A DNA stretch of 64,000 bases. Origin: Limnothrix sp. BL-A-16 (lineage in GTDB: Bacteria; Cyanobacteriota; Cyanobacteriia; CACIAM-69d). Every line of letters starts with the position of its first letter. Position 1 is the first letter of the stretch. The stretch covers positions 1,568,001 to 1,632,000 of the forward strand of contig CP166615.1 of NCBI GenBank assembly GCA_041937175.2, written 5' to 3'. Shown piece after piece: positions 24,839-44,086 of the stretch. Position numbers and translations under genes: made by a program. Under the pieces are notes generated by a model. That model was not told where the DNA came from and did no database searches. It saw nothing but the letters and a program-made list of their open reading frames with translations.

Positions 24839-24894
24839 AACCAGTTTTGGTTTAATCCATCCCCAACCACTCGATCGCCCTTTCCTTCAGTCCC

Positions 24895-24929
24895 ATCCTC
24901 CAATCTAGCCATCGGTTGGAGGATTTTTA
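24895..24929 (+). terminator. Probable intrinsic terminator
   Basis: ATCCTCCAATC...GGTTGGAGGAT stem followed by a T run, downstream of the GDSL gene. Confidence 0.55.
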
Positions 24930-25882: not shown

Positions 25883-25944
25883 AGCGGCTTGATTGTTTCT
25901 GTTTTGTTCCTTGCACACCAGATCGCAAAGTTGAGTTTTGGGTT

Positions 25945-28347: not shown

Positions 28348-28359
28348 TAATCCAGCCAC

Positions 28360-29814
28360 ATGGAACTACAACCCAAACCTACCGCCGCCCTCTGCTTGCC
28401 AGAATCTGAGATTTCAGCACTGTTGCAAGGGCGAATGCTGGCGATGTTGTCCGCCACGTTCATCAAGCCCCAGCGCATGTTGGCGCTTCAGCCGATTCCC
28501 GATCGCCTCAATCCCCGATCGCACGATCGCCCCTACCGATTCGCAGATTTGGGTTCCGAGAGCCTTCCCCCCGCCATCCGGGCGATCGTCACCTGTGTGG
28601 AATGCCAAATTATTGACGACTTGGCGGCCGTCGATGCGATCGCCGCCCTCACCATTTGGTCTGAGGATTTCCTCGCCCGTTCGATCGCCACCAAAGGACA
28701 CTTATTCCTAGCCACCGTCCGTGCTTTTCGACTGGTCACCCCCCACCCCCTAGAGCACGATTTTGAAGACCTCAGCGCGATCGGAAAATGCGTGGTGATG
28801 CCCCGTCCCTTCACGGGCGAAAATCCTGAGCCGGTGCTGCCGGAAGCGGTGTTTAAACGGCGATCGCAACAACTGCGCGATCAACAACCGCCCGAACATT
28901 CAGAACTTGAAGCTCTGCAATCCGCCCTTGCTGATTTAGCCAACACACTGCCCAGCGCCACACAATTAGACAACCGCATCCAAGCCTTTTTGGGGTGGCG
29001 CGTGCCAGGGCGATCGTCCCGTCTCAGTCCCTGGATGAGCAAAATTTCTAAAGTCGGTGCATCCAGCGAAGGCAACGAATTCGAGCGGCTGGTGCGCCAA
29101 GCCATGATTTCCTTAGGATTTTCTAACCGCAATCAAAATCCCAAAGCTAGCCTTGATCCCGATAGTGTCGGCGGCGCAGGCGGTCTAGATTTTGTTTGTG
29201 AATCGCCCTATTTAATCATCGGTGAGTGTAAATCAAGCAGCCGCGATACGCTACCCGATGGGGTGTTTTCGCAGCTTATGAAACTTGGTAACAAATATCT
29301 CAATCCTGAAGACTATGAACAAGCCATAAAATTAGTTATTTCTGTTGGCAAACCCAACCACCATGCTCAAAAAACAGCCCAAGGCAACCGTATGAATTTG
29401 ATTAAGCCCACCACCCTAGAACGCTTGGTTAAGCTCAATGTTTCCTATCCTGGTTCGTTGAATTTATGGGAGCTAGAAAATTGCCTAAAAAATCCGCCCT
29501 ATGCTCAAGAAGCTGATGACCAAATCAATGATTTTATAGATGAAAAAATTGAACAATTGCGAATCCGTGCATTTTTGATTGATTGCCTAAAACGACTAAC
29601 AAGTAACAATCAAAATAAAGGAGCTAGCACAGTCGAGCTTCACGCAGTCTATATCACCTCCCAGCCCCCCAAATTGCTGGAAATGGAAGACCTGCACAGC
29701 GTGGCGATCGAACTGGCTTCCCCACTCACCGGTTATCTAAGTCGCGAAAAGGGTCGTGAGTGGCGGGACGATCGCTTCTTTTGGTTGCGCGACTTGGCGA
29801 TCGAGAAAATCTAG
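28360..29814 (+). CDS. DUF1802-like N-terminal domain fused to a PD-(D/E)xK restriction-endonuclease-like domain
   Basis: ALLQGR...LTIWS.DFL N-terminus; FERLVR..M.SLGF...GGLDF...IGECK. Confidence 0.7.
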   Translation: MELQPKPTAALCLPESEISALLQGRMLAMLSATFIKPQRMLALQPIPDRLNPRSHDRPYRFADLGSESLPPAIRAIVTCVECQIIDDLAAVDAIAALTIWSEDFLARSIATKGHLFLATVRAFRLVTPHPLEHDFEDLSAIGKCVVMPRPFTGENPEPVLPEAVFKRRSQQLRDQQPPEHSELEALQSALADLANTLPSATQLDNRIQAFLGWRVPGRSSRLSPWMSKISKVGASSEGNEFERLVRQAMISLGFSNRNQNPKASLDPDSVGGAGGLDFVCESPYLIIGECKSSSRDTLPDGVFSQLMKLGNKYLNPEDYEQAIKLVISVGKPNHHAQKTAQGNRMNLIKPTTLERLVKLNVSYPGSLNLWELENCLKNPPYAQEADDQINDFIDEKIEQLRIRAFLIDCLKRLTSNNQNKGASTVELHAVYITSQPPKLLEMEDLHSVAIELASPLTGYLSREKGREWRDDRFFWLRDLAIEKI

Positions 29815-29832
29815 GCGATTCCTTTTCAGTCC

Positions 29833-31899
29833 TCATTCTCGGGCTGCTTCAATGCAGGTTTCCCGATCTTTCTGTAAATTGGGCTTGCCTTCCCGTTCTC
29901 GCCCAACAGAAAATCGCGTTTCAATATAGGGCAACTCGATCGTAAAACAACTGCCCACAGTCACCTCACTGGTCACCCCCACACGACCACCGTGAAGTTC
30001 AACAATCCGCTTCACCAGAGCCAAGCCCAGACCCGTCCCCTCATATTTACGATTGAGGGCACTGTCAATTTGCACAAACGGCTGAAAAAGACGCTTAATA
30101 TCCTCTGGTGCAATCCCAATACCCGTATCAGTGATTGAAATTCGCACAAAATATTTTTGTAATTCTCCATTTTTTTCCGCCTCATTCTCGCCCTCTTTCT
30201 TTTGGCAAGTCACTTCTAGGGTGATGCGTCCGCCTTCCGGCGTAAATTTAAAGGCATTATTGAGCAAATTCAACAAAACTTGGCGGATACGACGTTCATC
30301 GATATATAAATCTGGCAAATTAGGCGATAGATTAACTTCCAGTTGAATATTTTTTTGCTCGGCTTGGGGCTGAATGAATGTCAAGCTTGATGTGCAAAGC
30401 GGCCCGATCGCAACGGTCGTGCAATTTAGCTCCAAAAACTCCGATTCGATCTTGGCAATATCCAAAATATCGTTAATTAAATCCAGAAGATGTGCGCCGC
30501 TTTTTTCAATATTCTCTAGTGCTTTGTATTGCTGCTTATTAACACTGCCAAAGATACCCTCTTGCAAAATCTCCGCCACTCCCAAAATTGTGTTTAAGGG
30601 AGTGCGGAGTTCGTGGCTCATGGTTGCCAAAAAATTGTCTTTCAGTCGATTTGACTGCGTGAGTTGACTATTGGCTTTTTGTAACCTTTGCAGAAGGCTC
30701 TGTTGTTGATTTACCATGCTGAAAAAGACATCGGATAAATGGCTAATTTCATCCTGTGAATGGTTGGCGTTTTCATGATTCCCGATCATGCGATCGCAAA
30801 CATCTAAAATGGGTTGCAAACGGCGATTTAAAAATCGAATGAATAACCAAACAACCAGCAACAACAGAAATGCTGCAATGATCGTGGCGCTGATAGCTCC
30901 CAATAGGGCAGGTTTGGCAATAGCCTCGTAAGGAATAGCCTCCAGCATCACCCATTGAGTTCTGGGAACTGTTTGATAAACCCAATAAATCGAATCAGAT
31001 TCAAAATGTGATTTTTCAATGCCTTGATTGATTCGGTAAAGAATTTGTTCCCAAACAGGTTTTAGGGACGGAATGGATGAAACATTAGCCAATTGGGCAG
31101 CCTTACGAGGATCAAGAGAATAGCTCAAGAGTTGCCCATTTTTTGTGATTAGAGCATAATAGCCATTGTTATTGAACGAAAGATCATCTTGACTTAAATT
31201 AAGATCGCCAGCATCAATGTCTTTATTAAGATCATCAATATTAATATCTCCGTTCATTACAGCAATTAGCTGACCTTTTTGATTGCGAATCGTTCCTGAA
31301 AAGGTCATGAGTGGAATGGGATAATTATCATTCATATAAGGCTTTGACCAAAGGTAGCGATCAGCCTTAACCGCGTCTCTGAAGTATTGCAGTTTTGGAT
31401 ACTGATCGACTTCCCATAGATCAACCAATGTAAATCTAGGATCTTGAGTAAGAGTAACCCCGCGATCGGGAATAGATTCTTCAACATAGGGGCCAAACCA
31501 CTCGCGATCGACCAAGCCCTTGGGGAACTGCATCACCCCAAATCCGGTGATCAGTTTAGGACGAGCTGACATAAATGAAAGCACTAATTTCTCGTAGGCC
31601 TCGGGCGATCGCACACCACTATCGTGTAAGAAAATCGTTGCGGAAACCAAACTTTTTAAAAAAGTTTCACCACTGAGCAGCTCCGCATCGAGATGCCGAA
31701 CCTTATTATCCGTTTCCGAAGTTAGTTGCAAAATCCGAACGGATTTCAGCTCACTATAAAATAAATACCCTAAGCTGCCGAGACCAATGGAGGCGGCAGA
31801 AATCACCGCCACAAACAAGCGAGTGCCGATCGAACGAAGTCCAAATTTCATTGATTTAGCCGGAACAGTTAGACCGTTTTGGGTTGAATGGCTTGTCAT
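29833..31899 (-). CDS. Membrane sensor histidine kinase with Cache-like periplasmic domain
   Basis: Two TM segments, MSHELRTPLN, NLLNNAFKFT, DTGIGI, GTGLGL. Confidence 0.92.
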   Translation of the reverse strand: MTSHSTQNGLTVPAKSMKFGLRSIGTRLFVAVISAASIGLGSLGYLFYSELKSVRILQLTSETDNKVRHLDAELLSGETFLKSLVSATIFLHDSGVRSPEAYEKLVLSFMSARPKLITGFGVMQFPKGLVDREWFGPYVEESIPDRGVTLTQDPRFTLVDLWEVDQYPKLQYFRDAVKADRYLWSKPYMNDNYPIPLMTFSGTIRNQKGQLIAVMNGDINIDDLNKDIDAGDLNLSQDDLSFNNNGYYALITKNGQLLSYSLDPRKAAQLANVSSIPSLKPVWEQILYRINQGIEKSHFESDSIYWVYQTVPRTQWVMLEAIPYEAIAKPALLGAISATIIAAFLLLLVVWLFIRFLNRRLQPILDVCDRMIGNHENANHSQDEISHLSDVFFSMVNQQQSLLQRLQKANSQLTQSNRLKDNFLATMSHELRTPLNTILGVAEILQEGIFGSVNKQQYKALENIEKSGAHLLDLINDILDIAKIESEFLELNCTTVAIGPLCTSSLTFIQPQAEQKNIQLEVNLSPNLPDLYIDERRIRQVLLNLLNNAFKFTPEGGRITLEVTCQKKEGENEAEKNGELQKYFVRISITDTGIGIAPEDIKRLFQPFVQIDSALNRKYEGTGLGLALVKRIVELHGGRVGVTSEVTVGSCFTIELPYIETRFSVGREREGKPNLQKDRETCIEAARE

Positions 31900-32261
31900 T
31901 GCTTAGCCCAGTAGCCTCAGTGGCGGACTGTTCAAAGTATAAAGAAGCACCTCTTTAACTAAAGAAAACCTAGTCTGAAACGCTGGCTCAAGCATGTGGC
32001 AAAATCACGAGGTATAAAAACATAATTGAATCCTAAATTTATGGATGCCAAATTTTTAAATTCGACTGAGAAAGATACAACAAATCTAACAGGAGTTAAT
32101 ATTTTTGCCCACGATCAATTAACTGTTGAATGACCTAATCAACAGCTCATCGGCAGCCCGCCCTTGGTCGCCCGACCAATACCCACAGCCCTCGTCCGCT
32201 GACGCTGGACAGCGGATTCATTCTGGGGTGTTTCGTGTCATGCTTTTCCGACCGTTCCCGC

Positions 32262-32501
32262 TCAGCCCTCGTCCTCAGCGTCTTTAGGAGCCAGCTCCCC
32301 GATCGCCCGGCCCAAATAGGCCTCAACAAAAGCCCGCGCCGCCTTTGGGTTCAACTGCTCTAGGGCATCCACGATCGATGGAATCGATTCCGCTGTTGGG
32401 TCGCGCGTTTCTGCGAACCAATGGCTAATAGTGGCGCGATTGATGCCCATCGCCACCGCTAAGCGATTTTGGGCGATGTTGTATTGCTGCAACCGAATCA
32501 T
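32262..32501 (-). CDS. XRE-family HTH protein, possibly 5'-truncated
   Basis: IAQNRLAVAMGINRATISHW HTH; abuts the island edge. Confidence 0.6.
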   Translation of the reverse strand: MIRLQQYNIAQNRLAVAMGINRATISHWFAETRDPTAESIPSIVDALEQLNPKAARAFVEAYLGRAIGELAPKDAEDEG

Positions 32502-32609
32502 CCTCGTGGGTCAAAGCGAGTGGGTCGATCGCTTGGTCAAGAGCCGCTACGTAACTGGTGTTTAGCATTATTGTTTTGAAGCTCTCGATTTTTGTACTGC
32601 TGGTGCTTA

Positions 32610-33059
32610 TCAATTAGCTTGCTCTTCTTGAAATGGGCTTGCATACCACTGTAAGTACCATTGTTCTGGATCCTCATCACTGGAACAGTCTTCATACTTT
32701 GGAATATGAATCTGGTAAGAATCATGAAAAGACAAGTGAAGACTGTTGTCTTCCAAAAATTCGTACCCTGTAAATATGCTTTGATTTAACGGATGAAATA
32801 GATTGCACCACTCTTGAAATCTTAGTCTGTAGTCAATATCTTCATAATGTGGGCACAAGTAGGCATCTGCAATCAGTTCTCCATTCTGCATAAATGACCA
32901 AGGTGGGTCAATCCAAATGTAACCTTGCCTTTTTAATTTGTCTTTTTTTTCAAATCTGATTTTGATGGAATTACACGCAATTGAATGGTGACAAGTCTTT
33001 CCAATAAAACCTCTCAAAATCGGTTCATACTTTTGTCGATCACTAGTGATATGGCCCAA
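32610..33059 (-). CDS. Hypothetical protein (cassette E cargo)
   Basis: 149 aa, AT-rich, TTG start with GAGGTGG upstream, follows attI-like copy 3. Confidence 0.6.
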   Translation of the reverse strand: MGHITSDRQKYEPILRGFIGKTCHHSIACNSIKIRFEKKDKLKRQGYIWIDPPWSFMQNGELIADAYLCPHYEDIDYRLRFQEWCNLFHPLNQSIFTGYEFLEDNSLHLSFHDSYQIHIPKYEDCSSDEDPEQWYLQWYASPFQEEQAN

Positions 33060-33175
33060 TTTTCCACCTCATTCTCAATACTACAGATGTGCTTTCAACC
33101 TTTAAGCTGAAAGCTATTAACCTTGATCGCTGACAAAGAGTCTATCAAACAAGTTTATAACCTCTTTCTGAAGCA

Positions 33176-33310
33176 GGACAACTATTGATTAAATGATTAG
33201 ATTGCAGTTGCTTGAAAACTCTTTCAGCAGAGTGTTGTTCAGCAGTGGCAAAACAATGTCATCAATTATCATACTTTTGTTGTAACGATCGCCCTGGAAG
33301 CGTCACAGCC
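33176..33310 (-). other. attI-like platform copy 3 (diverged)
   Basis: + strand GGACAAC-TATTGATTAAATGATTAGATTGCAGTTGC...CTCTTTCAGCAGAGTGTT aligns with 33696 and 40307; identity ends at AAC. Confidence 0.65.
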
Positions 33311-33375
33311 CTAACCCAACAGCGCGATCGCCTGTTTCACCAGGTTCTCCGCCGTCAGACCGTTGAGGCCCATCA
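33311..33375 (-). pseudogene. Phosphoketolase 3'-end fragment 3 (65 bp, includes stop)
   Basis: Encodes MGLNGLTAENLVKQAIALLG*, matching the end of 40473..42680. Confidence 0.9.
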
Positions 33376-33678
33376 AACGTCTTCATCGTAGGCTCTCGCA
33401 ATCGCGGTGTCGAAACGGCTGGCAAACTCGCAGAACTCCTGCCCCCAACCACTGCTCACACTGACCTCCTGGATTGGGCCGGTGGGAAGAAACAAAAGCT
33501 CAATGTCGGAACGCTTGGGTATGTCGCCAGACTCAATGCGAGAAACAATGCTGTCAATCTCTCGAAGTGCTGCCGGTGCATCCTTCCATGAAGACCAATC
33601 AAAGTTGTTGTCGGGCCGCGAGAGGAACTGGCGCGCCTCTCGGAGAACCTCAACCAACTGTTGGTGCTTGGAATTCAT
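33373..33678 (-). CDS. Hypothetical protein (cassette D cargo)
   Basis: 101 aa; ATG about 20 bp after the GTTAGGT core; its TGA overlaps phosphoketolase fragment 3. Confidence 0.7.
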   Translation of the reverse strand: MNSKHQQLVEVLREARQFLSRPDNNFDWSSWKDAPAALREIDSIVSRIESGDIPKRSDIELLFLPTGPIQEVSVSSGWGQEFCEFASRFDTAIARAYDEDV

Positions 33679-33695
33679 AGAGACGTGCGGATGAC

Positions 33696-33861
33696 ACCTA
33701 ACTATTTATTAGATCGCAGCTGCGGGATGACTCTTTCAGCAGAGCGTTGTCAAGCAGTTGCAGTGTAACTTCAGTATGAAGGGTATTATCCCGCAGTTGC
33801 GAGATAATACCCCCACTTATAGAACTTCTATCGCAACGATCGCCCTGGAAGCGTCACAGCC
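33696..33861 (-). other. attI-like platform copy 2
   Basis: Minus strand ...TCTAATAAATAGTTAGGT; collinear with 40307-40472; includes palindrome 33781-33812 and TTGACA at 33748-33753. Confidence 0.8.
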
Positions 33862-34014
33862 CTAGCCCAATGGCGCGATCGCCCGTTTCACCAGATTCTC
33901 CGCCGTCAGACCATTGAGGCCCATCAGTTGGCCAGCGGTGGCCGTCGTTTCGCCGCGCTTCCAGGCGAACAGATCGCGCGGGGCCGTGCTACGGAGGGCG
34001 ATCGGCTCCAGCAT
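33862..34014 (-). pseudogene. Phosphoketolase 3'-end fragment 2 (about 153 bp, includes stop)
   Basis: Encodes MLEPIALRSTAPRDLFAWKRGETT...RAIAPLG*. Confidence 0.92.
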
Positions 34015-34018
34015 GGTG

Positions 34019-34753
34019 TTAGTCGTCGCCATCACGTTCAATCTCACGCTCAATAATCTCTTTGACAAACTCAGGCAGTTCCTTCTCAACACTGACAGCC
34101 CTTTGCTTGAGCCTTTCATAAATCTCAGTGTCATCTCCTTCCCAAAGCAGATCTATTCTTCTGATCTGCCGCATTGCAATATGCTCATAGCTTTCTGGAT
34201 AAGCCCAGTAGCAAGATAGACAAATAGATTTATCCTTAATGCTGTTCCAGTTTTCGCAATGTTCGCATGACCACGACTTGGCCCGGTTAGCTGAGCCACA
34301 AAGTAACATGAAATTTTCTGGGACTAGATCCGGCTCACCAGCAACTTCAAAAGGGACACGATGATCAATTTGTAATTCGCGTTGATTAACCTCTTCAAGA
34401 TAAATAAAGCACCTACATCCATATCTGCTAATCAGTGCCTCTTTAATCTGCTTGGATAAACCTGTTCTGCCAGAAAGGCGAGTGAATCTTGTCTTGCTAA
34501 TATCTCCAAGTCGATATGCAGCTATTTTTCTGCCATCGCTTCCAGTAACACGAAAAGTTTCTAATGGGATACCACTTTCTCTAACATCTCTAGCTGCTCT
34601 TGGAGGATGGTTATAACCGTAAGTTTCTTTTAATTCCTCAGTTGTAATAAATCCGTGTTGCAAGATGTGGTCAATGACTGCTTTCGGTCTCTTTGCTGTT
34701 ACAGAACGGCAAAGTTCCAGGAAGTCATCGGGTAGCTGCTGTGAATTCTCCAT
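34019..34753 (-). CDS. HNH endonuclease, probable restriction enzyme (cassette C)
   Basis: LQIDHRVP...NFMLL...NRAK, CEHC and CLSC; TAA lies within the inverse core GACTAAC. Confidence 0.82.
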   Translation of the reverse strand: MENSQQLPDDFLELCRSVTAKRPKAVIDHILQHGFITTEELKETYGYNHPPRAARDVRESGIPLETFRVTGSDGRKIAAYRLGDISKTRFTRLSGRTGLSKQIKEALISRYGCRCFIYLEEVNQRELQIDHRVPFEVAGEPDLVPENFMLLCGSANRAKSWSCEHCENWNSIKDKSICLSCYWAYPESYEHIAMRQIRRIDLLWEGDDTEIYERLKQRAVSVEKELPEFVKEIIEREIERDGDD

Positions 34754-35672
34754 GTGTTTCCAAAAGGGTTAGCTGCTTTGGTTGTTGGTCAATATAGCTA
34801 AAATCATAAATTTTAGTGTTCATTAATTTTTTGGATAAACTTGGCGACAAGTACAGCGACTCAATTGTATTTTCCGATTTGCCTAGTAAGGTAGACTGTG
34901 AAGATCTGCCAACTTCGATTTCGATTCTTTCAAGATTTAAGCTATTAGGGAGAAATTTGCCAAACGCCTTATCACCTAATTTTCCGTCATAACTGATAGC
35001 AAATACAGATCCTTTTTGATTTAAGCATTCAAGCGCTAACACAAATTCATCGAAGTCTATCCCAGACAAATATCTTGAATCTCTATTGCCGCATACACCT
35101 TGATATGGAGGATCCATATAGATAAAATCACCTTCTTGAATTTGCTCTAATACCTCTCGGTAATCCAAATTAGTAAATTTACATTTGCTTTTGAGCAAAC
35201 TAGAAACACCGATTATATTTTTTCTCATTGTTTCGGGTCGTGTTCCTTTGCGTCTTTTGTCCGGACTTTGGTTAAACAATCCTTCAGAATTGTAGCGAAC
35301 CGAACCTTTAACGCACCTTGCTAGTAGATAAAGAAGTAGTTTTGGATCGTTGGTCTCATTGAATTTTGATCTGACTTCAAAGTAATGGTCTACAGAATTG
35401 GGGTGTTGTTTATTCCATAGCTCTAAGTAAAAATCGGCTATTTCGTCTGGTTTTTCTACAGCTAGTTCTAGGAGCTTGATGAGCGGATGGTTCAGATCGT
35501 TTAACCAAAAACTCTGGGTGATTTGACTTGCGGACGTAGCAACACTAATTGCAGCAGTTCCAGCAAAAGGCTCTACTAGCCTCTTGAATTTTTTTGGAAA
35601 GAACTGGAGGATGTGCTTTGCTAGCTTCCTTTTGCTGCCTTGATATTGAATGAAGTGGGGTAGGTTTGCCAT
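34725..35672 (-). CDS. D12-class (Dam-like) N6-adenine DNA methyltransferase (cassette C)
   Basis: YQGSK, EPFAGTAA, YMDPPY. Confidence 0.9.
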   Translation of the reverse strand: MANLPHFIQYQGSKRKLAKHILQFFPKKFKRLVEPFAGTAAISVATSASQITQSFWLNDLNHPLIKLLELAVEKPDEIADFYLELWNKQHPNSVDHYFEVRSKFNETNDPKLLLYLLARCVKGSVRYNSEGLFNQSPDKRRKGTRPETMRKNIIGVSSLLKSKCKFTNLDYREVLEQIQEGDFIYMDPPYQGVCGNRDSRYLSGIDFDEFVLALECLNQKGSVFAISYDGKLGDKAFGKFLPNSLNLERIEIEVGRSSQSTLLGKSENTIESLYLSPSLSKKLMNTKIYDFSYIDQQPKQLTLLETHGEFTAATR

Positions 35673-35782
35673 CGTTATACAAGGACAAATGATCTTACAG
35701 CGGCTGATTAGGATAGTTCGAGCTTATCGCTTAATTCAAGCATTTTTTCAAGGGCGATCGAAGGGGTGAGGCTGGAGTCTAA

Positions 35783-35810
35783 GACGACTAACGATTCATT
35801 CGGCTGCAAT
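35783..35810 (-). other. Distal half of an attC site; start of cassette C
   Basis: Minus strand GCAGCCGAATGAATC-GTTAGTCGTC; the last 10 nt are the reverse complement of the cassette end at 34018-34027. Confidence 0.65.
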
Positions 35811-36019
35811 GATCGCCCGTTGAACCAGGTTCTCAGCCGTCAGACCGTTGAGGCCCATCAGTTGGCCAGTGGTGGCTGTCGTTTCGCCGCGCTTCCAGGC
35901 AAACACATCGCGTGGGGCCGTGCTGCGGAGAACGATCGGCTCCAGCATCGCACTCGTGCCGCCGGTCACGCCCAACAACGCATCACCGCCGAAGAGCCGA
36001 TCGAACGTTGTGCATCATC
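35811..36019 (-). pseudogene. Phosphoketolase 3'-end fragment 1 (about 209 bp, no stop)
   Basis: Encodes TFDRLFGGDALLGVTGGTSAMLEP...ENLVQRAI; ends within a HIP1 site (GCGATC). Confidence 0.92.
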
Positions 36020-36075
36020 CACAGCAAGATAACGGTGTTAGCCTGTCTCAACCAATAGTTTAGTAGAGCAATCCA

Positions 36076-36900
36076 TTAATCTCTTTCCTCATCCTGAAGC
36101 TCTTTTTCGTCTATCTCAACTAGCTCATCAACTACCGAATCTAAAGAAGGTTGATCATCTTCTGAAGGCAATCTGTATTTAGATAAAAAACTCTGAAGCT
36201 TAGGATGCGGTATCCTTTTTAGCTTTCCAAAATTTGTATCCTCGTTAAAATCCTTACCTTCAGATTCCTTGCGACCATATGAATTTGTGTCTAAAGGTAA
36301 ACCTTTTCTGAGTTTTTCTTTCCCGATTTTGCTTAAAACCGTTGGCGTTTCATAATTTCCAAACCATCTTCCACCACGATCAGTCATACGTTTATCTCGT
36401 GCTTCAACAAGCTCAATCATAGAAAAAAGTTCGAGATCAATAATTTGGGGAACTGCTGCATCTGAGTTCAGATCATCTACCTCCATTCGATATGCTATGA
36501 GCAGCATTGCGTCTAACTCCGGATCGACATTTTTGACAGTTACTTTCTGAGTAAGTCGGGCTGATGGCTCTCGTGGTGTAGGCGGCTTTTTCATTTTAAG
36601 ACCAGGATTATCTACATAAAGAAGCTTTAGCTCCAACCTCTTGCCAGATTCATGTTTGTAATCTGGATATCCTTCTCTTTCTCCCAAAATACCTTCATGC
36701 TTTTCAAGCCCAAGTCCTTTTATATCCAAATGAGGAATGAGTGCATCCATCAAGGCACCTACAATTGTGCCTACTTGAGATGGTTCAAATGCGGTAATTG
36801 CTACTATCGGCAGACTTAAGCTCCGAAATTGTTGTCCTATCAAAGGCTTAAGTTGCTCTTTTAGCTTATCCAAGTCATGGTTCGATATGCGACCACTCAT
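36076..36900 (-). CDS. Putative PD-(D/E)xK restriction endonuclease (cassette B)
   Basis: GYPDY...RLELK; ATGA-coupled to the upstream HTH gene; next to an MTase. Confidence 0.62.
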   Translation of the reverse strand: MSGRISNHDLDKLKEQLKPLIGQQFRSLSLPIVAITAFEPSQVGTIVGALMDALIPHLDIKGLGLEKHEGILGEREGYPDYKHESGKRLELKLLYVDNPGLKMKKPPTPREPSARLTQKVTVKNVDPELDAMLLIAYRMEVDDLNSDAAVPQIIDLELFSMIELVEARDKRMTDRGGRWFGNYETPTVLSKIGKEKLRKGLPLDTNSYGRKESEGKDFNEDTNFGKLKRIPHPKLQSFLSKYRLPSEDDQPSLDSVVDELVEIDEKELQDEERD

Positions 36901-37157
36901 GTCTCTTTCTCTTCCTTCTGAATTTTTTGTTTTATTTCAGAAGGGAGGACATCTTCTAGATAAAGACCTAAGGCAGCACACCATTTAGCTGCTTCAATTA
37001 CATCAAGCCGTCTTTCACAGGTTTCTACCTTGGAGACCAAGGTTTGCTCTTTACCCAATCTTTCCCCCAACTGTTGCTGAGAAAGATTTTGTCTCTTACG
37101 AGCACGACGAAGGCGAGCAATAAACTCAATGTAGAGAGGGTCACGAGCACCCGACAT
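36897..37157 (-). CDS. XRE-family HTH regulator, controller-protein-like (cassette B)
   Basis: LRRAR...LSQQQLGERLGKEQTLVSKVETCERRLDV. Confidence 0.85.
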   Translation of the reverse strand: MSGARDPLYIEFIARLRRARKRQNLSQQQLGERLGKEQTLVSKVETCERRLDVIEAAKWCAALGLYLEDVLPSEIKQKIQKEEKET

Positions 37158-37330
37158 AAGGCAGCAAGTATGCGAATTTAGGGTACAAGTTGAAGGTAGA
37201 GGATGCCATCCATTCCTGACCTAAATCGTGCATCTCCTTAGCAAATACCCCAAAAACGCATATTTATAGTTTCCCGACCATCGTCTTGACAAATGATCAA
37301 CCCTGCGCGATACTTCGGTTGACTAAAGGA

Positions 37331-38629
37331 ATGAGTATGGCTAAACGACATCAAAATCAACAAGGCAACCTCGAATCGCTGTTTCTTCGCATGGAAGAAC
37401 TTGTTCTTGCAAATTCTGGTGAGGACGAGTTTGAGGAGGTGTTTAAGTTGCTTGTAGCAAAGCTTTGGGATGAACGAAGCCAACAATCTAAATTTTATCG
37501 ATATAGCACTGATGAAGCTACCTTTGAAGCAATAGCCAAACTCATGAGAGAAGCGGAAAAAAAATGGTCGGGAGTTCTCAATGAAGTCACATCCAAACTT
37601 ACGCCTGAGCATCTTTCAATCTGTGTAGATGCTCTTTCAAAACATAACATCTCTAATGAAAGTCTTGATGTTATTGATAGTTTCTTTGAATTTATAGTAT
37701 CCAAGTCGGCAAAGGGAGCTAAAGGTCAATACTTTACTCCAAGGCATGTAGTTGAACTATGTGTAAGAATTTTAAAACCTTCTTCAGGTGAGACAATTCT
37801 TGATCCGGCTTGCGGATCGGGCGGATTTCTCCTCCACGCATTGAAATTTATTAAACAACATGAAAAGTTAGATAGTGGAGGAGAAATTCAAGGCTTTTGT
37901 AGTGAAAAATTATGGGGTTTTGATATTGATGCCAAAGCCACACGAGTTGCTAAGGCTTTAATGATACTTGCAGGAGATGGGAGTAGTAACATTGTCAGGC
38001 TTAATAGCTTATTGAAGCCTGAAATGATTGGGCTTTTTAGAAACACAGAAGAGCCGAATCTTACTATAGAGGATGTATGTCGAAGTCGAATTAAACGTCA
38101 CAAAGGTTTCGACGTTATCCTTACAAATCCTCCCTTTGCTGGTGAGATTAGAGAAAATAGCTTTCTCAATTGTTATAACCTTGCAAATAAAAAATCTCGA
38201 ATTGAAAGGGATATATTATTTGTTGAGAGATGCCTTGAGCTATTAAGACCTGGAGGGCGATTAGCTATAGTCTTGCCTCATAATAAGTTTGCCGGAAAAT
38301 CATTTGAGTTTCTACGACAATGGATTTTGAGGAAAGCAAGAATTCTTGCTGTCATAGGTTTAGGAAGAAATACTTTTATGCCTCATACTCATCAAAAAGC
38401 CAGTATTCTAATATTGAAAAAGCAATCTCCTGGGAAGAGTATCCCGTCAGATTATAATATCTTTTTTGCGATTAGTGAAAAAGATGGCAAGAACTCTAAG
38501 GGGCAGTTTGTTCTGCATGAATCTGTTGCGAGATTAGAAAATACTTGGGAAGATATAGATCATGACTTCTCAGAAATAGTTGAAGGCTTTGAGACATTCT
38601 TAAAACAGGAAAATATTGATTTCGAGTAA
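37331..38629 (+). CDS. HsdM-like N6-adenine DNA methyltransferase (cassette B)
   Basis: GQYFTPR, DPACGSGGFL, TNPPF. Confidence 0.9.
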   Translation: MSMAKRHQNQQGNLESLFLRMEELVLANSGEDEFEEVFKLLVAKLWDERSQQSKFYRYSTDEATFEAIAKLMREAEKKWSGVLNEVTSKLTPEHLSICVDALSKHNISNESLDVIDSFFEFIVSKSAKGAKGQYFTPRHVVELCVRILKPSSGETILDPACGSGGFLLHALKFIKQHEKLDSGGEIQGFCSEKLWGFDIDAKATRVAKALMILAGDGSSNIVRLNSLLKPEMIGLFRNTEEPNLTIEDVCRSRIKRHKGFDVILTNPPFAGEIRENSFLNCYNLANKKSRIERDILFVERCLELLRPGGRLAIVLPHNKFAGKSFEFLRQWILRKARILAVIGLGRNTFMPHTHQKASILILKKQSPGKSIPSDYNIFFAISEKDGKNSKGQFVLHESVARLENTWEDIDHDFSEIVEGFETFLKQENIDFE

Positions 38630-38634
38630 CAAAT

Positions 38635-39294
38635 ATGGCTTTGATTTCGATTCAGTCAAAAACTCGTCTTGTGTCACCAGTAATTCTTGCTCCCGAAAGA
38701 TACGATCCAAGACGGAAAATCAAGACGCAAGAAAACGAAGTAGTTGAGCTAGGTGAAATCGTTATTTCCGTAAAGAAGATGGTTAAATCCTCTGTTAATC
38801 TTGGAAAATGTTTTGTTCTTGATACTTCTGACGCTCGAGAAGGCATTGTAATTGCCAGAAAGCAATCGCTGCAAGGCACTGAAATTGGTAGCACCAAGAA
38901 GGAGGTCAAATCTGGGGATGTTATTATCTCACGTCTTAGACCATATCTACGACAAGTAGCATTTATTGATGAAGAGATACCTAATGCTAATGGTACTCAG
39001 ATTCTTTGCTCTACGGAATTCTTTGTCTTACGCTCAATTGATAATCTATCGATAGCATTTTTGGTACCTTTTTTACTTTCAAACGCAATTCAGGAAGTAC
39101 TCGCAGCATCCCAAGAAGGTGGGCATTATCCTAGATTTATCGAATCGGCTCTTCTAACACTTCCTATACCCAAAAGCCTCTTATCCCAACGCTCACTGAT
39201 CTCTGAAGTTGTCAGAAATAGTGTTCAAATGTACAGAGCTTCTGAGAAATCGATGTCAAACATGGTCGAAAAGATTAACGCTACGCTGTCTTAA
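38635..39294 (+). CDS. HsdS-like half-size specificity subunit, single TRD (cassette B)
   Basis: GDVIISRLRPYL, CSTEFFVLR, YPR...LPIP. Confidence 0.75.
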   Translation: MALISIQSKTRLVSPVILAPERYDPRRKIKTQENEVVELGEIVISVKKMVKSSVNLGKCFVLDTSDAREGIVIARKQSLQGTEIGSTKKEVKSGDVIISRLRPYLRQVAFIDEEIPNANGTQILCSTEFFVLRSIDNLSIAFLVPFLLSNAIQEVLAASQEGGHYPRFIESALLTLPIPKSLLSQRSLISEVVRNSVQMYRASEKSMSNMVEKINATLS

Positions 39295-39350
39295 GATTTT
39301 TCTCATGAAATTTTAGATTTGCGGAGGGCAGCAAGACCTAGACTTTTGCA

Positions 39351-39436
39351 GGCTAACGTTCCTGGTCAGCGGTTGCCGATACCTTGTCCACTCCACAAGC
39401 AACTTGGGGCAATCCGCTGCACCAGGGTTGTTGTGC
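39351..39436 (-). other. Integron attC recombination site (86 bp)
   Basis: Minus strand GCACAAC-AACCCT-GGT(G)CAGC-GG(A)TTGCC...GGCAACC-GCTGACC-AGGAAC-GTTAGCC: R''/L''/L'/R' layout with two unpaired bases, 11 bp after an ORF stop. Confidence 0.88.
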
Positions 39437-39447
39437 TGCGTGCTGAA

Positions 39448-40212
39448 CTATTCATTATTTACTTTAGGTTCTGAAGGTTTTGGTTCTCGCAACTTATTCT
39501 TAACTTGATTGTTAGAATTATTTAGAAAATCAGATTCTATACCAGCAGAACTCCTTTCAATCAGGTTTGTAATAAGCTTATCCATAAGTTGTAGGTTTTT
39601 CTCTGGATCTTTAACTTGCTTACAAAGCTCAACAGCTAGCATTGTGTCTTGAATTCTAGTCAGTTGCTTATAGAATCGATTAGATTGCTCAACTGTCCGG
39701 TTATAAAGAACAAAGTTAGCACCTCCTATGAATTGAAGAATTATTCCAGAAATGCCAGATATAATCGACAACTCAAGCTTTTGTCCTTCTTTAATAAAAG
39801 GTAGCAATATTGCTATAACTACAGTAATAAATCCTAAAAATATGACTAATGCGCTGAAGCTAAAGCTACGTCTTGCTTGATTTTTGTTAATTGTATAGTA
39901 CTCGGTAATCTGATTTAAATTTAACCTTATAACATCTACAACACTATCTTCTCTTTCAATTCTTTCAATAATCTTTTCTCTTTCTTGCTTTATTGCTTTT
40001 ACTTCGATTGTTTCTGAGATTGCTGATTTGGATAAACTAAAAGGATTATTGGACAGGAGAAAAAACACAACAATTACAGTAAGAGGCAGTGTAGGAATAC
40101 CCAGGAAATTCCCAACCCACGCGACTAGAGCCGCCGTTATGAAATTAGCGGGGATCTCAGTCATCATTACTTGTGTCCATGCTTCTTTAAAGCTACTGGC
40201 TCTTTTTCTCAT
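39448..40212 (-). CDS. Membrane protein resembling the cyanobacterial TRADD-N-associated 2TM domain (cassette A)
   Basis: EYY...NQARRSF followed by two TM helices; AT-rich. Confidence 0.6.
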   Translation of the reverse strand: MRKRASSFKEAWTQVMMTEIPANFITAALVAWVGNFLGIPTLPLTVIVVFFLLSNNPFSLSKSAISETIEVKAIKQEREKIIERIEREDSVVDVIRLNLNQITEYYTINKNQARRSFSFSALVIFLGFITVVIAILLPFIKEGQKLELSIISGISGIILQFIGGANFVLYNRTVEQSNRFYKQLTRIQDTMLAVELCKQVKDPEKNLQLMDKLITNLIERSSAGIESDFLNNSNNQVKNKLREPKPSEPKVNNE

Positions 40213-40306
40213 AATGAATTTCCGTAGGCGTTGTATTTGGGAAAAGTTGCTAATACCTTAGCAAAAGAGCATAGCTTTTGATACTCCCCCAACCAATAAC
40301 TCAGCA

Positions 40307-40472
40307 GCACAACTATGTATTAGACCGCAAGTGCAGGATAACTCCTTCAGCAGAGTGTTATCAAGCAGCTACAGTCTAACTCCAGTCCAAAGGGTACTAC
40401 CCCGCAGTTGCAGGATAATACCCCCACCTATAGAACTTCTACCGCAACGATCGCCCTGGAATCGTCACAGCC
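40307..40472 (-). other. attI-like platform copy 1
   Basis: Minus strand TCTAATACATAGTTGTGC, compared with attI1 CCTAAAACAAAGTT; GTTGTGCTGC is the reverse complement of the attC R'' region at 39430-39439. Confidence 0.8.
40335..40364 (-). promoter_or_regulatory. Candidate Pc-like cassette promoter
   Basis: TTGATA-18 bp-TATCCT pointing at the crossover; copy 2 has TTGACA at the same place but a poor -10. Confidence 0.35.
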
Positions 40473-42680
40473 CTAACCCAACAGCGCGATCGCCCGTTTC
40501 ACCAGGTTCTCCGCCGTCAGACCGTTCAGGCCCATCAGTTGGCCAGCGGTCGCCGTCGTTTCGCCGCGCTTCCAGGCAAACACATCGCGCGGAGCCGTGC
40601 TGCGCAGGACGATCGGCTCCAGCATCGCACTCGTACCGCCGGTCACACCCAACAATGCATCACCACCAAAGAGCCGATCGAACGTCGCATCATCAATAAA
40701 GTGAGCATCCGGCTCCGAGCACATCTCCACCGCCACATCGGTCGATCGGTAGAGGCGACGGGGGCTAATCACCGACACGATCCGCGAACCGATCCCCTGG
40801 GCCGCCAACTGTTCGGCGGCCGCCAGCGCCGGGGTCAAGGTCATGTCACCAATCACCGCCAAGACCACGGTTTTTTCGCCGGGCGTTTCTTGCAACACAA
40901 AGCCGCCGTCCTGCAAGGCTTGGCGCGTTTGCTCAAAGGTCGAGACGATCGGCAGCGGCGACTTGCTGACCGTAATCGTGATCCCCTTGTTCACTTGCGC
41001 CAGCGCCCAGTCATAGCAAGCCTGGGTGCTGTTCGCATCGCAGGGGAACAGCGGGAAGATGTTGCCGTTGCGCATCATCGCCGCGAAGTAGTTTTCGATT
41101 TCCGGGCGTTGGTGCGTCCAGCCGTTGCGGCCCTGCTCCAGCGCACCCGCCGTGAACAGGCAGACCGTGGCGGGCGTGGGGCGGCGCAACTCGGCCATGG
41201 CTTGGGTGACGGTTTGCCAAATCGGCAGACCGTTGATCGCGAACGACTCGTAGGAACACCAGAGCGATCGCGCCCCAAACAGGGCTTGCCCCACCGCCAA
41301 CCCGGCGCAGGCATCCTCGTTCAGGGGTTCATACACCTGACCATCGGGCTGTTGGAAATAGATGGGGTCGGTGGTCGGGTGAACGATTTTCAGGCCCACA
41401 TTGATGTTGTTGATCCCCGAGGCGGCGTTGCCGTCGGCGTTGGTGACGATGAAGTCGCGATCGGCTTGACCCACTTGCACCACCACATCGCCCATGGCCG
41501 TGGTCGAAACCTTCTTTTCGCCGGCCGGGAATTCCACCAGGTTCAGCTTGCCCAAATCCGCTAGGGGCCGCACCTTTTCGGTCACGGCCACCTGAGCCGC
41601 CGGGCCACCGCCCGATCGCTCAAAGTTCGTCCGCACCAGTTGCCAAGCCTCCGGCGACAGGGCCCGCTCCTTCAGGGCCGCCACAATGTAGTCCCGCTCC
41701 AGGTTGTCGCCGGGATAGAGGTTGTGGGACTGAGCACCGCGCTTGTGTACGCCCGCGCCCTTCAGTTGCTTGATGATCAACACCGTCAGCTTGCCGCCCA
41801 AGGCCAGTTTCGCCGCCTGGTCGGTGGCTTCCAGCACTGCCTGGGCAAACACCAATCGCTGGGCAAAGGAAAACTGGGTGCTATCGACGTAATCGCCCGG
41901 TTGGTTGGCATCGTCGAAGTCCTTGGCATCCAGCAGCACCACTTCTTCAAAGCCATTGCCGCGCCAGTAGGCTTCCATGGCGGCGTTGGATTTGGTGGAG
42001 ACCATGCTGTGGTGCTCTTGGCTGTAGCCGTTCCAAATCAGAATCGGCAGGAAGTTGGTGGCCTGCGGATAGGCGGTGTTGAAGTGGCCAAAGCTGCTCA
42101 TGATGTAGGGTTCGCCCAGGCCGCCATCCCCGATCGTCACGGGGAAGAGGGTTCCGGGGAACAGCTTGGCCCCGGCCATGGCAAAGTGCTGACCCTGGCC
42201 GAGGGGGCCGGCGGGGGCCAGCAGGCCGGGAATTTGCCCCGACAGGTGGCCGAGCAGGCCGTGGGTTTCGCGGAATCGATCGCGCAATTGCTGCACCGTC
42301 GTGATGCCCATGGCTTCGAGCGATCGATCCAAGAACACCTGGGAATAGAAACCGGGGGCGTGGTGGCCCACTTCGGTGGTGAAGTTCTTGTAACCGAGCA
42401 TGATCAGCGCCGCCATCACATCGGCAGAGCTGGCATAGCCGCCGGGGTGGCCCGATTCCTTGCTGGCGGTCATCTGCACGATCAGGTAACGCAGGGCATC
42501 GGCCGCCAGGAGAGTTTGGAAGGCCGCCGCTCGATCGCTCGGGCTGGCGATCGCCCCTGTGGTCGCATCCACGGCTGGCGCAGCACCCAGGATGTCAAAT
42601 TCGGGCCAAGGCGCACCGAAGTATTGAATGCCGTCGCAAAACGCAGGCGTGGTCGTGGGTGCGGGGGTTGTGGCGGTCAT
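40473..42680 (-). CDS. Phosphoketolase family protein (ThDP-dependent)
   Basis: SGHPGG, GHHAPG, GPLGQG, GDG...N ThDP motif, GRNGWTHQRP. Confidence 0.88.
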   Translation of the reverse strand: MTATTPAPTTTPAFCDGIQYFGAPWPEFDILGAAPAVDATTGAIASPSDRAAAFQTLLAADALRYLIVQMTASKESGHPGGYASSADVMAALIMLGYKNFTTEVGHHAPGFYSQVFLDRSLEAMGITTVQQLRDRFRETHGLLGHLSGQIPGLLAPAGPLGQGQHFAMAGAKLFPGTLFPVTIGDGGLGEPYIMSSFGHFNTAYPQATNFLPILIWNGYSQEHHSMVSTKSNAAMEAYWRGNGFEEVVLLDAKDFDDANQPGDYVDSTQFSFAQRLVFAQAVLEATDQAAKLALGGKLTVLIIKQLKGAGVHKRGAQSHNLYPGDNLERDYIVAALKERALSPEAWQLVRTNFERSGGGPAAQVAVTEKVRPLADLGKLNLVEFPAGEKKVSTTAMGDVVVQVGQADRDFIVTNADGNAASGINNINVGLKIVHPTTDPIYFQQPDGQVYEPLNEDACAGLAVGQALFGARSLWCSYESFAINGLPIWQTVTQAMAELRRPTPATVCLFTAGALEQGRNGWTHQRPEIENYFAAMMRNGNIFPLFPCDANSTQACYDWALAQVNKGITITVSKSPLPIVSTFEQTRQALQDGGFVLQETPGEKTVVLAVIGDMTLTPALAAAEQLAAQGIGSRIVSVISPRRLYRSTDVAVEMCSEPDAHFIDDATFDRLFGGDALLGVTGGTSAMLEPIVLRSTAPRDVFAWKRGETTATAGQLMGLNGLTAENLVKRAIALLG

Positions 42681-42962
42681 GGGCAATTCACCTAGTGGTT
42701 CGACTCTCTCGACTGTAAGGCCAGTCTTGAGGCGATATTTTACAACCTTGATGTTGCTAAAGTCTCAGGACGATCAACTCAGGACGATCGAAACCGGCCC
42801 CTTAACGACCCGTTGTACTGGGGGCTGGACGATCAGCAGGCGATCGATTGTGGCAGTCTCTCGCTAAATTTGCCGCCCTAGTCCAGACCCAAAACGCCAC
42901 GCCCTAACCCATCAACCCTGTTGATAGACTGGGGGCAATTCCCCGATCGAAACTGGTCGCCT

Positions 42963-43508
42963 ATGTTGACCCTGGCGCAATGGACCGTGGCGGAATATCA
43001 CCAAATGATCGCGGCGGGCCTGCTGGTCGATCGCCGCGTGGAACTGTTGAACGGGCAAATTATTGAAATGTCACCGGAAGGGCCGGAGCATACCTATCGC
43101 GGCGAAACCCTGGCGGAGTGGCTGCGCGATCGCCTGCGGGGGCGAGCCTATGTGCGGGAAGCGCGACCGATTACCCTAGACCATTCGGAACCGGAGCCAG
43201 ATATTGCCGTGGTGCGGGGCGATCGATCCCAATTTGTCCAACGACATCCCGGCGCGGCGGATCTGTTTTGGGTGGTGGAAATTGCCCGATCGACCCTAGC
43301 CACAGACCTGACCCACAAGCGGGATCTCTACGCGCGGGTGGGAATTCCGGAATATTGGGTGGTGGATTTGGTGAATCGGCGGGTGGTGGTGTTTCGGCAA
43401 CCGGAAGCGGGCCGCTACAGCCAAGCGGAAACGGTGAGCGATCGCCCGATCGCGCCGCTGGCTTTCCCGGACTGTGCGATCGACCTGACCCAGCTCTTTC
43501 AACCGTAG
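42963..43508 (+). CDS. Uma2 family endonuclease, copy 1
   Basis: RVELLNG.I.EMSP, PEPD, VEIA, YAR.GIPEYW. Confidence 0.92.
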   Translation: MLTLAQWTVAEYHQMIAAGLLVDRRVELLNGQIIEMSPEGPEHTYRGETLAEWLRDRLRGRAYVREARPITLDHSEPEPDIAVVRGDRSQFVQRHPGAADLFWVVEIARSTLATDLTHKRDLYARVGIPEYWVVDLVNRRVVVFRQPEAGRYSQAETVSDRPIAPLAFPDCAIDLTQLFQP

Positions 43509-43540
43509 AGTCTGCCGCGTGACGACGCGACAACGCAATT

Positions 43541-44086
43541 ATGTTGACCCTGGCGCAATGGACTGTGGCGGAATATCACCAAATGATTGCGGCGGGCCTG
43601 TTGGTCGATCGCCGCGTGGAACTGTTGAACGGGCAAATTATTGAAATGTCACCGGAAGGGCCAGAACACCGCTACCAATGCAGCAGTTTGGGCGATCGGC
43701 TGCGGGTGCTGTTGCGCGATCAGGCTTGGATTAGTGAGGCACACCCGATTACGCTGGATGACTCGGAACCGGAGCCGGATTTGGCCATTGTTCGGTTGCC
43801 TCGATCGGCCTTTCGCGATCGCCACCCGGGGCCAGCGGATCTGTTTTGGGTGATTGAAATTGCTCGATCGACCCTCACCACAGACCTGACCCACAAGCGG
43901 GATCTCTACGCGCGGGTGGGAATTCCGGAATATTGGGTGGTGGATTTGGTGAACCGGCGGGTGGTGGTGTTTCGGCAACCGGAAGCGGGCCGCTACAGCC
44001 AAGCGGAAACGGTGAGCGATCGCCCGATCGCGCCGCTGGCCTTCCCGGACTGTGCGATCGACCTGGCCCAGCTCTTTCAACCGTAG
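43541..44086 (+). CDS. Uma2 family endonuclease, copy 2
   Basis: Same motifs and the same 546-nt length as copy 1. Confidence 0.92.
   Translation: MLTLAQWTVAEYHQMIAAGLLVDRRVELLNGQIIEMSPEGPEHRYQCSSLGDRLRVLLRDQAWISEAHPITLDDSEPEPDLAIVRLPRSAFRDRHPGPADLFWVIEIARSTLTTDLTHKRDLYARVGIPEYWVVDLVNRRVVVFRQPEAGRYSQAETVSDRPIAPLAFPDCAIDLAQLFQP

Follow-up and report, generated by a model that had tools for sequence, protein, structure and literature searches.

How can an integron cassette array go on changing in a genome that holds no integron integrase? The question is raised by a locus at positions 32,610 to 40,472 of a 64,000-nucleotide (nt) stretch of DNA from Limnothrix sp. BL-A-16 (GenBank assembly GCA_041937175.2, contig CP166615.1, positions 1,568,001 to 1,632,000; hereafter the window), which is part of a complete 4.56-Mb genome (G000) and whose features read mostly on the minus strand. 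Integrons are thought to require their integrase for gene acquisition and, to our knowledge, attI sites are mostly unknown for cyanobacterial integrons. In the window, the 3' end of a phosphoketolase-like gene (PK) leads into an attI site and a series of gene modules, among which the gene end recurs. A prediction made earlier from the sequence had described this interval as an integron-like array without an integrase, built of stacked gene-end, attI and cassette units. Our analyses show that the interval is an integron-type array without an integrase, and that the genome contains neither an integron integrase (IntI) nor a remnant of one. It is well supported that the locus is a chromosomal integron lacking its integrase, with a gene end in place of intI and with stacked copies of the gene-end/attI platform.

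attI, attC and the absence of an integrase

The PK gene, which reads towards attI, is conserved across the class. It was matched at E ≤ 0.001 in 40 of the 41 genomes searched (G000 included), and the full-length matches listed, at 67–97% identity, come from 30 other genomes (31 with G014, whose copy has one in-frame TAG). The approximately 140 nt that follow the gene are 78% identical over 115 nt (E 7.7e-23) to a site directly upstream of the full-length intI of genome G404, and the alignment takes in both hairpin repeats and the end motif. The G404 IntI scores 460.8 bits against the integron integrase profile TIGR02249 (cut-off 265 bits) and its start codon lies 27 nt from the attI-homologous site; the same genome holds locus L107. 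In the window, 25 nt separate the PK stop codon from attI, and a GCGATCG within them marks the point where PK flank and attI meet, at approximately the position of the intI start codon in the intact relative. Because the homologous site adjoins an intact intI, homology confirms the assignment of the DNA behind PK as an attI site, the label that it had been given in the original prediction, with the crossover probably between 40313 and 40312.

The copies of this site part ways directly after the attI GTT, and similar end motifs precede the first cassette upstream of true intI genes in other cyanobacteria. Both a second locus of this genome and a few sites in relatives carry copies of the distal half of attI, all with a sharp common end (...TCTAATAMATAGTT) and unrelated DNA beyond. 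A pattern search with the end motif returned 15 genome loci (4 of them places seen earlier, and with L112 and L120 apparently one sequence) as well as 7 metagenome loci, and all titled ones are cyanobacterial. A truncated, divergent intI N terminus (39–68 codons) lies 130–170 nt upstream at 6 of 23 attI ends, the PK end stands upstream at 3 loci, and neither PK nor intI is found at 14, of which 5 have less than 310 nt of upstream sequence. Among 401 genomes of the class, BLAST with the element found it matched in 11; 5 of the 7 outside the family were checked, and none of these lies beside a full intI. A terminator or small RNA, and an element like a miniature inverted-repeat (MITE) or palindrome-associated (PATE) transposable element, were also considered for the conserved 170 nt after PK and were dropped, as the site adjoins an intact intI. 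An Rfam search of 32000–41000 gave no match at E ≤ 1, and the inner motif of attI is no genome-wide repeat, with 9 matches, 5 of them inside the window.

The attC predicted at 39351–39436 was assessed with covariance models built in this analysis (R1 and then R2, the latter from 14 sites). The model match spans 39339–39442 with scores of 98.5 bits (R1) and 91.9 bits (R2), and the DNA fold has an energy of −20.7 kcal/mol (z −2.4). Two hairpins at the sister-species locus L041 share the outer boxes of this site, and in a three-site consensus fold 8 of 26 pairs are compensatory and the unpaired bases are conserved. In the 14-site alignment, which was fitted to the model and so favors its covariation score, 87% of cells are paired and 17 of 26 pairs are changed on both sides; none of 500 shuffles reached the observed score and no slid register came close. 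As a positive control, R2 gave 5 sites at 3 of 13 loci with a true intI, all on the side and strand expected of cassettes. On structure, covariation and this control, the sequence evidence confirms 39351–39436 as a canonical attC, as had been proposed. Two further sites, listed in the original prediction as an attC stub and an attC distal half, fall below significance. The former, a collapsed attC, is a weak match at 13.5 bits (E 0.19; R2, filters off) with 71 model positions missing, and the latter scores lower still (Table 1). The window holds one significant attC only and, because of this, the locus lies outside the definition of a CALIN (cluster of attC sites lacking an integron integrase), which asks for at least two attC sites within about 4 kb. 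A regular-expression screen of the whole genome for attC returned only the window's site; further sites needed covariance models.

A six-frame search of the whole genome with TIGR02249 gave a best score of 57 bits, to a Xer-like gene approximately 16 kb beyond the window, and tblastn with six cyanobacterial IntI proteins recovered the same Xer-like gene only (26–35% identity), with nothing near this array or a second one described below. No tyrosine recombinase was found in the window by Pfam scans, which took in 47 of 60 candidate open reading frames (ORFs), or by the genome-wide TIGR02249 search, and the same scans showed no mobility gene in the restriction-modification (RM) inserts of the array. 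The lack of an integrase at the array and of any tyrosine recombinase in the window, both of which had been claimed from the sequence, is borne out by these searches. Of the parts of a complete integron, the locus has the attI and at least one attC, and an IntI was found neither at the array nor elsewhere in the genome. IntI above the cut-off is present in 0 of 8 family genomes versus 127 of 401 genomes of the class, which leaves the proposed IntI-type capture in trans with no candidate enzyme in the family.

Stacked copies of the gene end and attI

Downstream of the native gene, the PK 3' end recurs three times, with attI on two of the recurrences, and the PK-end/attI copies are mutually 82–92% identical over 147–300 nt (Table 1). 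Fragment 1 stops 15 nt short of the gene end, with its right junction within a HIP1 site (GGGCGATC|AT), and has no attI. Fragment 2 comprises the gene's final 152 nt and stop codon (33862–34014) plus 162 nt 3' of the stop, and attI copy 2 is complete (33700–33836). On fragment 3, which matches fragment fC of the sister species in position, attI copy 3 is damaged by an internal deletion of approximately 39 nt and an 8-nt insertion. Outside the window, the genome has no further copy except 76–82 nt of attI at the second locus. Each element listed in the original prediction lies within a few bases of the place given for it, and the stacked platform that it proposed stands, with three recurrences and a cargo that consists largely of defense genes.

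An assembly artifact caused by the repeats, which are 150–300 nt long, is scarcely credible, and nothing was found in its favor. The copies share only the identity given above, and independent contigs cross the three fragment junctions, with one contig (X5) spanning 32464–35840 and another (X9) spanning 32423–36034, through fragments 3, 2 and 1. The module order has a second support, as the sister species has the same modules in the same sequence.

Gene-end fragments in direct orientation that flank low-GC cargo would also be left if small genomic islands had integrated site-specifically and in tandem at the PK 3' end, each with a replacement gene end as at tRNA genes, and the integrases had been lost later. 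Island stacking at tRNA genes is known from marine cyanobacteria. However, the fragments here vary in length (approximately 65, 152 and 206 nt of gene), which points to no single crossover site, no recombinase gene or remnant is present, and the conserved sequence behind the gene is an integron attI. Moreover, at least four different left junctions were found, at about 307, 376, 386, 397 and 401 in probe coordinates. Because these differ among fragment types, no single site-specific crossover made them, and we rejected island integration at the PK end, a very improbable origin, on its varying junctions.

At the fragment-1-type junction, an attC G|TT comes first, then directly 9 letters that do not belong to PK, and then a 4-nt TGTG overlap with PK. 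The R'-plus-13-nt junction seen at the collapsed attC also stands behind full attC sites elsewhere, in L038 (65 bits) and on the metagenome contig L121. CGATCG sites coincide with three independent right junctions, with one left junction and with the PK/attI fusion. Overall, CGATCG or HIP1 is found at approximately 5–6 of 11 junctions counted in G000, G001 and G002, the PK/attI fusion among them, a post hoc count from the alignment over a 400-nt stretch with four such sites. In the window, CGATCG-type sites are at 40486–40493, 40448–40454 and 40610–40615. The octamer GCGATCGC has a density of 1.15 per kb, as would suit cyanobacterial DNA. Deletions bordered by HIP1 are known in Synechococcus. 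A Dam-family methyltransferase and an HNH endonuclease adjoin one CGATCG junction.

The cargo between the copies has a GC content of 31–45% versus 62% in PK. Two of its genes, orf101 and orf149, have no match in Pfam, PADLOC or NCBIfam. In the sister species a marginal attC (26.3 bits) lies behind orf149, and the likeness to the sister-species array stops at 32592. The end of the array, 32545–32592, coincides with a synteny break.

Table 1. Features of the array, listed from the PK gene downstream (window coordinates)
Feature	Position	Strand	Remarks
PK, phosphoketolase-like gene (XFP/transketolase superfamily)	40473-42686	-	737 aa; weak XFP/phosphoketolase matches, all under curated cut-offs
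attI copy 1, native platform	40311-40447	-	two hairpin-forming repeats; ends ...TCTAATACATAG|TT
Cassette A	39357-40312	-	canonical integron cassette; attI GTT at one end, attC R' GTT at other
Cassette A ORF	39448-40212	-	two transmembrane segments, SLATT-like/CyanoTRADDas_TM; Pfam PF20712 1.8e-16; NCBIfam SLATT_1 weak
attC of cassette A	39351-39436	-	R'' and R' boxes, stem with conserved extrahelical bases, variable loop
RM system 1 ("cassette B")	36076-39294	mixed	four genes
RM system 1 specificity subunit	38635-39294	+	PADLOC Specificity_I 1.7e-18
RM system 1 N6-adenine methyltransferase	37286-38629	+	Pfam N6_Mtase 5.2e-39; PADLOC MTase_I 7.9e-96
RM system 1 C-protein, helix-turn-helix (HTH)	36897-37157	-	PADLOC Control_protein 2.5e-10
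RM system 1 putative endonuclease	36076-36900	-	weak REase_II match (2.5e-4) as sole basis
Collapsed attC	36015-36049	-	R'' box, 3-nt spacer, R' box; whole stem deleted; then G|TTATCTTGCTGTG and PK fragment 1
PK fragment 1	about 35811-36016	-	equals gene 40488-40694; 91-92% identity
Possible attC 3' half	35774-35810	-	9.9 bits, E 1.5; below significance
RM system 2 ("cassette C")	34019-35672	-	PADLOC MTase_II 1.1e-65, REase_II 3e-58
RM system 2 Dam-family methyltransferase	34725-35672	-	TIGR00571 127.9 bits, cut-off 114.85
RM system 2 HNH-type type II endonuclease	34019-34753	-	PADLOC REase_II 3e-58
R''-like heptamer	34018-34024	-	overlaps stop codon of RM system 2 endonuclease
PK fragment 2 + attI copy 2	33700-34014	-	88-89% identity over 300-315 nt to 40311-40625
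orf101 cassette gene	33373-33678	-	3' end and attC lost here
PK fragment 3 + damaged attI copy 3	33180-33375	-	gene part 33311-33375 (65 nt)
orf149, last module	32610-33059	-	86% identity to L038 4251-4822

Variation among relatives and the history of the array

Three modules are common to G000 and the sister species G002, whose PK protein is 97% identical; they stand in the same order and are 86–94.5% identical: orf149; fragment 2 with attI and orf101; and fragment 1 with the Dam methyltransferase. G002 differs in the attI-proximal module and in the endonuclease region, and it carries extra fragments. At G002:C30:862-3207, near a contig end, three attC sites (70–83 bits) lie approximately 1.1 kb apart; these may continue the PK array of G002, whose contig ends 780 nt past an attC. 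G001 has a single PK fragment, with unrelated DNA for the rest. In G003, from another genus, PK–attI is present with no fragment there, and a short PK-end and attI copy lies on another contig (C9); the DNA downstream of its PK–attI, a fragment-free candidate for the empty site, is not syntenic with the window. All fragments are closer to the alleles of this genus than to those of G003. Between G000 and G002, fragment 2 shows 23 differences in 285 positions, exactly as many as the native copies (23/285); set against its own native copy it shows 33 in 285. Because the distal copies are as diverged between the two genomes as the native copies, distal stacking predates these species.

Closer relatives were compared through sequencing-run contigs from related isolates and a lake metagenome, which cover 32000–36034 and 40347–43000; at most 0.29 of the sampled words are present in any one run, and no RNA run was listed. 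The X5 contig joins 36034 to 40347 via 2122 other letters in place of the window's 4312, and therefore the slot with cassette A and RM system 1 has been replaced between close strains. Runs X1, X9 and X8 have zero cover at 36037–40073, which is not counted as absence, and what is said of this gap comes from the X5 contig alone. The differences of X5 from the window amount to 65/3377 in the distal array, 20/211 in fragment 1 and 15/171 in the PK end and attI, while those of X1 along PK towards its 3' end are 12/1187, 31/843 and 22/325. This pattern fits what is expected if exchanged tracts begin in the gene and end in an internal copy of it. A lake-metagenome contig (X8) joins 33713 to 40336, in the end regions of attI copies 2 and 1, with 11 letters between; it may represent a variant array or a repeat chimera. 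The locus thus varies both among relatives, as in the sister species, and in a close strain, as in X5. The suggestion that the platform is repeatedly re-imported, however, overstated the tempo, as the distal copies predate the species split and recent turnover is seen only in the attI-proximal slot.

A second integrase-less array lies outside the window in the same genome, at G000:C1:3430877-3436416 (locus L061 6672–12417). Here attI, the distal half of which is well conserved, stands behind the intergenic region of a MacB-type permease gene, and the five attC sites (27–77 bits) place this array within the CALIN definition. Its cassettes encode SUKH, DUF6331, methyltransferase, dehydrogenase and GNAT proteins, and inside it, past the third attC, is a 222-nt duplicate of the upstream flank with a truncated attI. 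On L108, a contig from a metagenome-assembled genome of an uncultured Phormidium sp., a truncated intI (58–68 codons) with attI is stacked as two 294-nt copies that are 96% identical, at oriented positions 1707–2000 and 4409–4702, 2.7 kb apart and with a different cassette behind each. By eye, the first of these copies seems to abut the start of an ORF that is cut at the junction. Because stacking also occurs with a truncated intI (L108) and with an intergenic flank (the second locus), the phenomenon belongs to the attI platform and not to PK.

In the sister species, locus L041 (G002:C90) holds at 4893–7163 a PK fragment, attI, a GNAT cassette, a hairpin, a methyltransferase cassette and a second hairpin, flanked by genes syntenic with G000 C1:3326992-3338763, where G000 has 2.2 kb of other DNA. 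This module is at an unrelated locus; therefore, platform-bearing modules also move between loci. On L121, a PK end and attI are followed by two cassettes, first a longer orf101 homologue that has its full attC and then a small membrane ORF, also with an attC, and after these by a fragment-1-type PK fragment. As the orf101 homologue is longer there and has its full attC, orf101 in the window evidently lost its 3' end and attC by deletion.

These comparisons bear on whether the copies are simply a frozen fossil of IntI activity. The integrase would then have made the internal PK'-attI copies before it was lost, as composite or delta-attI-type cassettes arising from attC recombining with secondary sites upstream of attI and then shuffled, and only deletions would have followed. 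The fragment-1-type copies (five in two genomes plus that of L121), which share a left end after an attC G|TT behind different attC sites, are what such an origin would leave, and parts of a 2026 study (PMC12901181) describe internal attI or delta-attI sequences of up to 244 nt in class 1 and class 2 arrays that are recombined by IntI1. The left junctions of fragment 2, of G002 fragment fB, of the G002 C90 copy and of the G001 fragment, however, are not at GTT, and even at the fragment-1 junction 9 non-PK nt intervene between G|TT and the PK homology. Added to this, the close strain shows replacement (2122 for 4312 letters) with divergence raised in the PK end and fragment 1, and no IntI is present in 8 of 8 family genomes. 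We consider an array made by IntI only to be rather unlikely.

Cyanobacteria are often polyploid, and unequal crossing-over between sister chromosomes at repeats could copy a platform unit in situ; cassette loss, RM insertion and deletions would follow, and stacking would need no foreign DNA. The L108 copies are highly identical, begin at the same left boundary and have more segments in common past each attC; they look like products of such tandem duplication, as do fragments fA and fC of G002, which share the same internal 70-nt deletion. At the locus in the window, however, the modules between the copies are unrelated in sequence and in GC and the copies differ in left junction, and PK'-attI modules are present at unrelated loci too (G002 C90 and G003 C9). 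In our judgment, duplication in place is distinctly unlikely as the source of the stacking.

The locus is probably the cassette array of an integrase-less chromosomal integron with a history of cassette capture, homology-anchored imports and module exchange, and the mixed history that we favor would combine integrase-era dynamics, which explain the G|TT junctions, with rare anchored imports joined illegitimately at their far end and later exchange of modules. In an IntI era, attI would have taken in cassettes, and their shuffling would have used the G|TT boundaries. On several occasions, DNA with the layout PK–attI–new cargo, either incoming or from a sister chromosome, would have recombined homologously within PK/attI. 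Through short microhomologies, and often in CGATCG sites, its far end would have been joined illegitimately to a point upstream of the resident gene end, pushing the old gene end, attI and cargo downstream. The two platform copies would then serve as portable homology arms with which RecA-type recombination alone could swap or insert modules, giving turnover without an integrase. Transcription of PK probably reads into the first cassettes. A crossover in the gene with an illegitimate far join was already part of the original prediction; the at least four left junctions, the TGTG microhomology and the gradient of divergence towards the PK 3' end fit it, and the mechanism itself we keep conditional.

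More tentatively, it is possible that, in a clade of filamentous cyanobacteria, attI and the 100–300 nt upstream of it (either a truncated intI or a housekeeping gene's end) act as a portable homology arm. After DNA uptake, RecA-type recombination would insert and stack cargo that lies between two copies, and would exchange it among genomes and among loci. Gene capture would continue past the loss of the integrase and would include multi-gene defense systems too large for ordinary cassettes, and CGATCG/HIP1 sites would be the preferred illegitimate joints.

Several points weigh against anchored imports and module exchange. No recombination event was observed, and all mechanistic steps are read from end products. 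The fragment-1-type junction is always exactly at the attC G|TT, which for part of the history points to IntI-type events and not to illegitimate joins. Both L108 platform copies begin at the same left boundary, as duplication of a single unit would leave them. Given the great age of the distal copies, stacking is infrequent when measured against the lifetimes of species. In G001 a PK fragment is present and yet zero attC sites, and this fragment, with 3/108 differences to G000 and G002 versus 7/108 to its own gene, is too weak a case to prove import. The replacing tract of X5 is known by its length of 2122 letters, which leaves the crossover points approximate. Finally, the attC model was made here from local sites and is not IntegronFinder's own.

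Around the array, two neighboring Uma2-family genes (putative restriction endonuclease-like) lie just upstream of PK, at 42921–44086 on the plus strand. The stretch at 23937–32493 encodes an 800-aa AAA_16 protein, a DUF1802 protein, a histidine kinase and an HTH protein; in G002 it shares a contig with PK at a distance of approximately 270 kb, and in G001 the two are on different contigs. At 4417–7863 (minus strand), another low-GC stretch encodes an 1148-aa protein with N6_Mtase, MmeI_Mtase and Type_ISP_C matches (a type ISP/IIG-like RM enzyme), behind which are ORFs without matches and then a ParA-like ATPase (9564–10940). At 21587–22416 (minus strand), a DDE_Tnp_4-type transposase is divided between an HTH_Tnp_4 ORF and an ORF for the DDE part; this is likely to be a frameshifted or programmed-frameshift insertion sequence.

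Relation to known systems

The locus and its relatives form a natural series in which the docking site has been duplicated together with upstream DNA and the attI-adjacent slot still turns over in a close strain, in a family without an integrase, a sign that ordinary recombination can keep such arrays in flux. They also supply a new attI family for cyanobacterial integrons. If the homology-arm reading is true, it would provide an integrase-independent route of growth for cassette arrays and defense islands and would link integrons to the "long target duplication" mobility of RM systems; the proposal is directly testable by transformation assays. A keyword search of the open-access literature found no stacked "flank + attI" platforms in an integrase-free lineage, which is no proof of their absence, and defense systems in chromosomal integrons are reported, we understand, in one preprint.

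In passages of Cury et al. (2016, PMC4889954), cyanobacteria are stated to encode integrons, CALINs are attC clusters without an integrase, and the persistence of cassettes in integrase-free genomes is an open question. The locus is like the chromosomal integrons and CALINs of those passages in its attI, in cassettes that end in attC sites with extrahelical bases and R''/R' boxes, and in the lack of an integrase both close by and in the genome as a whole. Unlike a CALIN as defined there, the window has one passing attC, below the two-site definition, and it keeps its attI, a site that the same passages call not searchable for most integrons. Moreover, attI in the window is multi-copy and lies behind a housekeeping-type gene.

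In Xanthomonas, as described in part of a preprint (Colombi et al. 2025, bioRxiv 10.1101/2025.06.18.660453), an ancestral integron at a fixed site has undergone lineage-wide intI inactivation and its arrays are vertically inherited. [quoted passage not shown] In the Xanthomonas integrons of that account, however, an intI gene or pseudogene is kept next to ilvD, whereas here intI is gone, PK abuts attI and the platform copies are stacked. Excerpts of the 2026 study (PMC12901181) describe internal attI sequences (14–244 nt, or a whole attI) that replace attC inside cassette arrays. Unlike the examples in those excerpts, the internal copies in the window carry 65–206 nt of upstream gene (intI in relatives), their junctions are mostly off the crossover point, and no integrase is present.

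"Long target duplication" describes RM mobility in which restriction and modification genes form inserts of <20 kb, with direct target repeats of >30 bp and no mobility gene; the cases are mostly from naturally competent species, with the cyanobacterium Microcystis among the exceptions. The RM systems of the window have these same features of insert size, target repeats and lack of a mobility gene, with RM system 1 and cassette A enclosed by the native PK end on one side and fragment 1 (206 nt) on the other, and RM system 2 enclosed by fragments 1 and 2. Unlike those cases, the array has an integron platform as its duplicated target, nests several events and includes integron cassettes in the inserts. 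With respect to homology-facilitated illegitimate recombination, an anchor is suggested by the PK divergence gradient and the joints are TGTG (4 nt) and CGATCG, with no event observed. Conserved integron flanks can provide the homology for RecA-dependent, integrase-independent replacement of arrays after natural transformation, according to sections of Domingues et al. (2012, PMC3410848), and transformation-driven recruitment of cassettes is treated in parts of Debatisse et al. (2025, PMC12614218). In contrast to array replacement as those sections present it, which uses two conserved flanks, an internal platform copy seems to serve here as the second arm, and the outcome is stacking.

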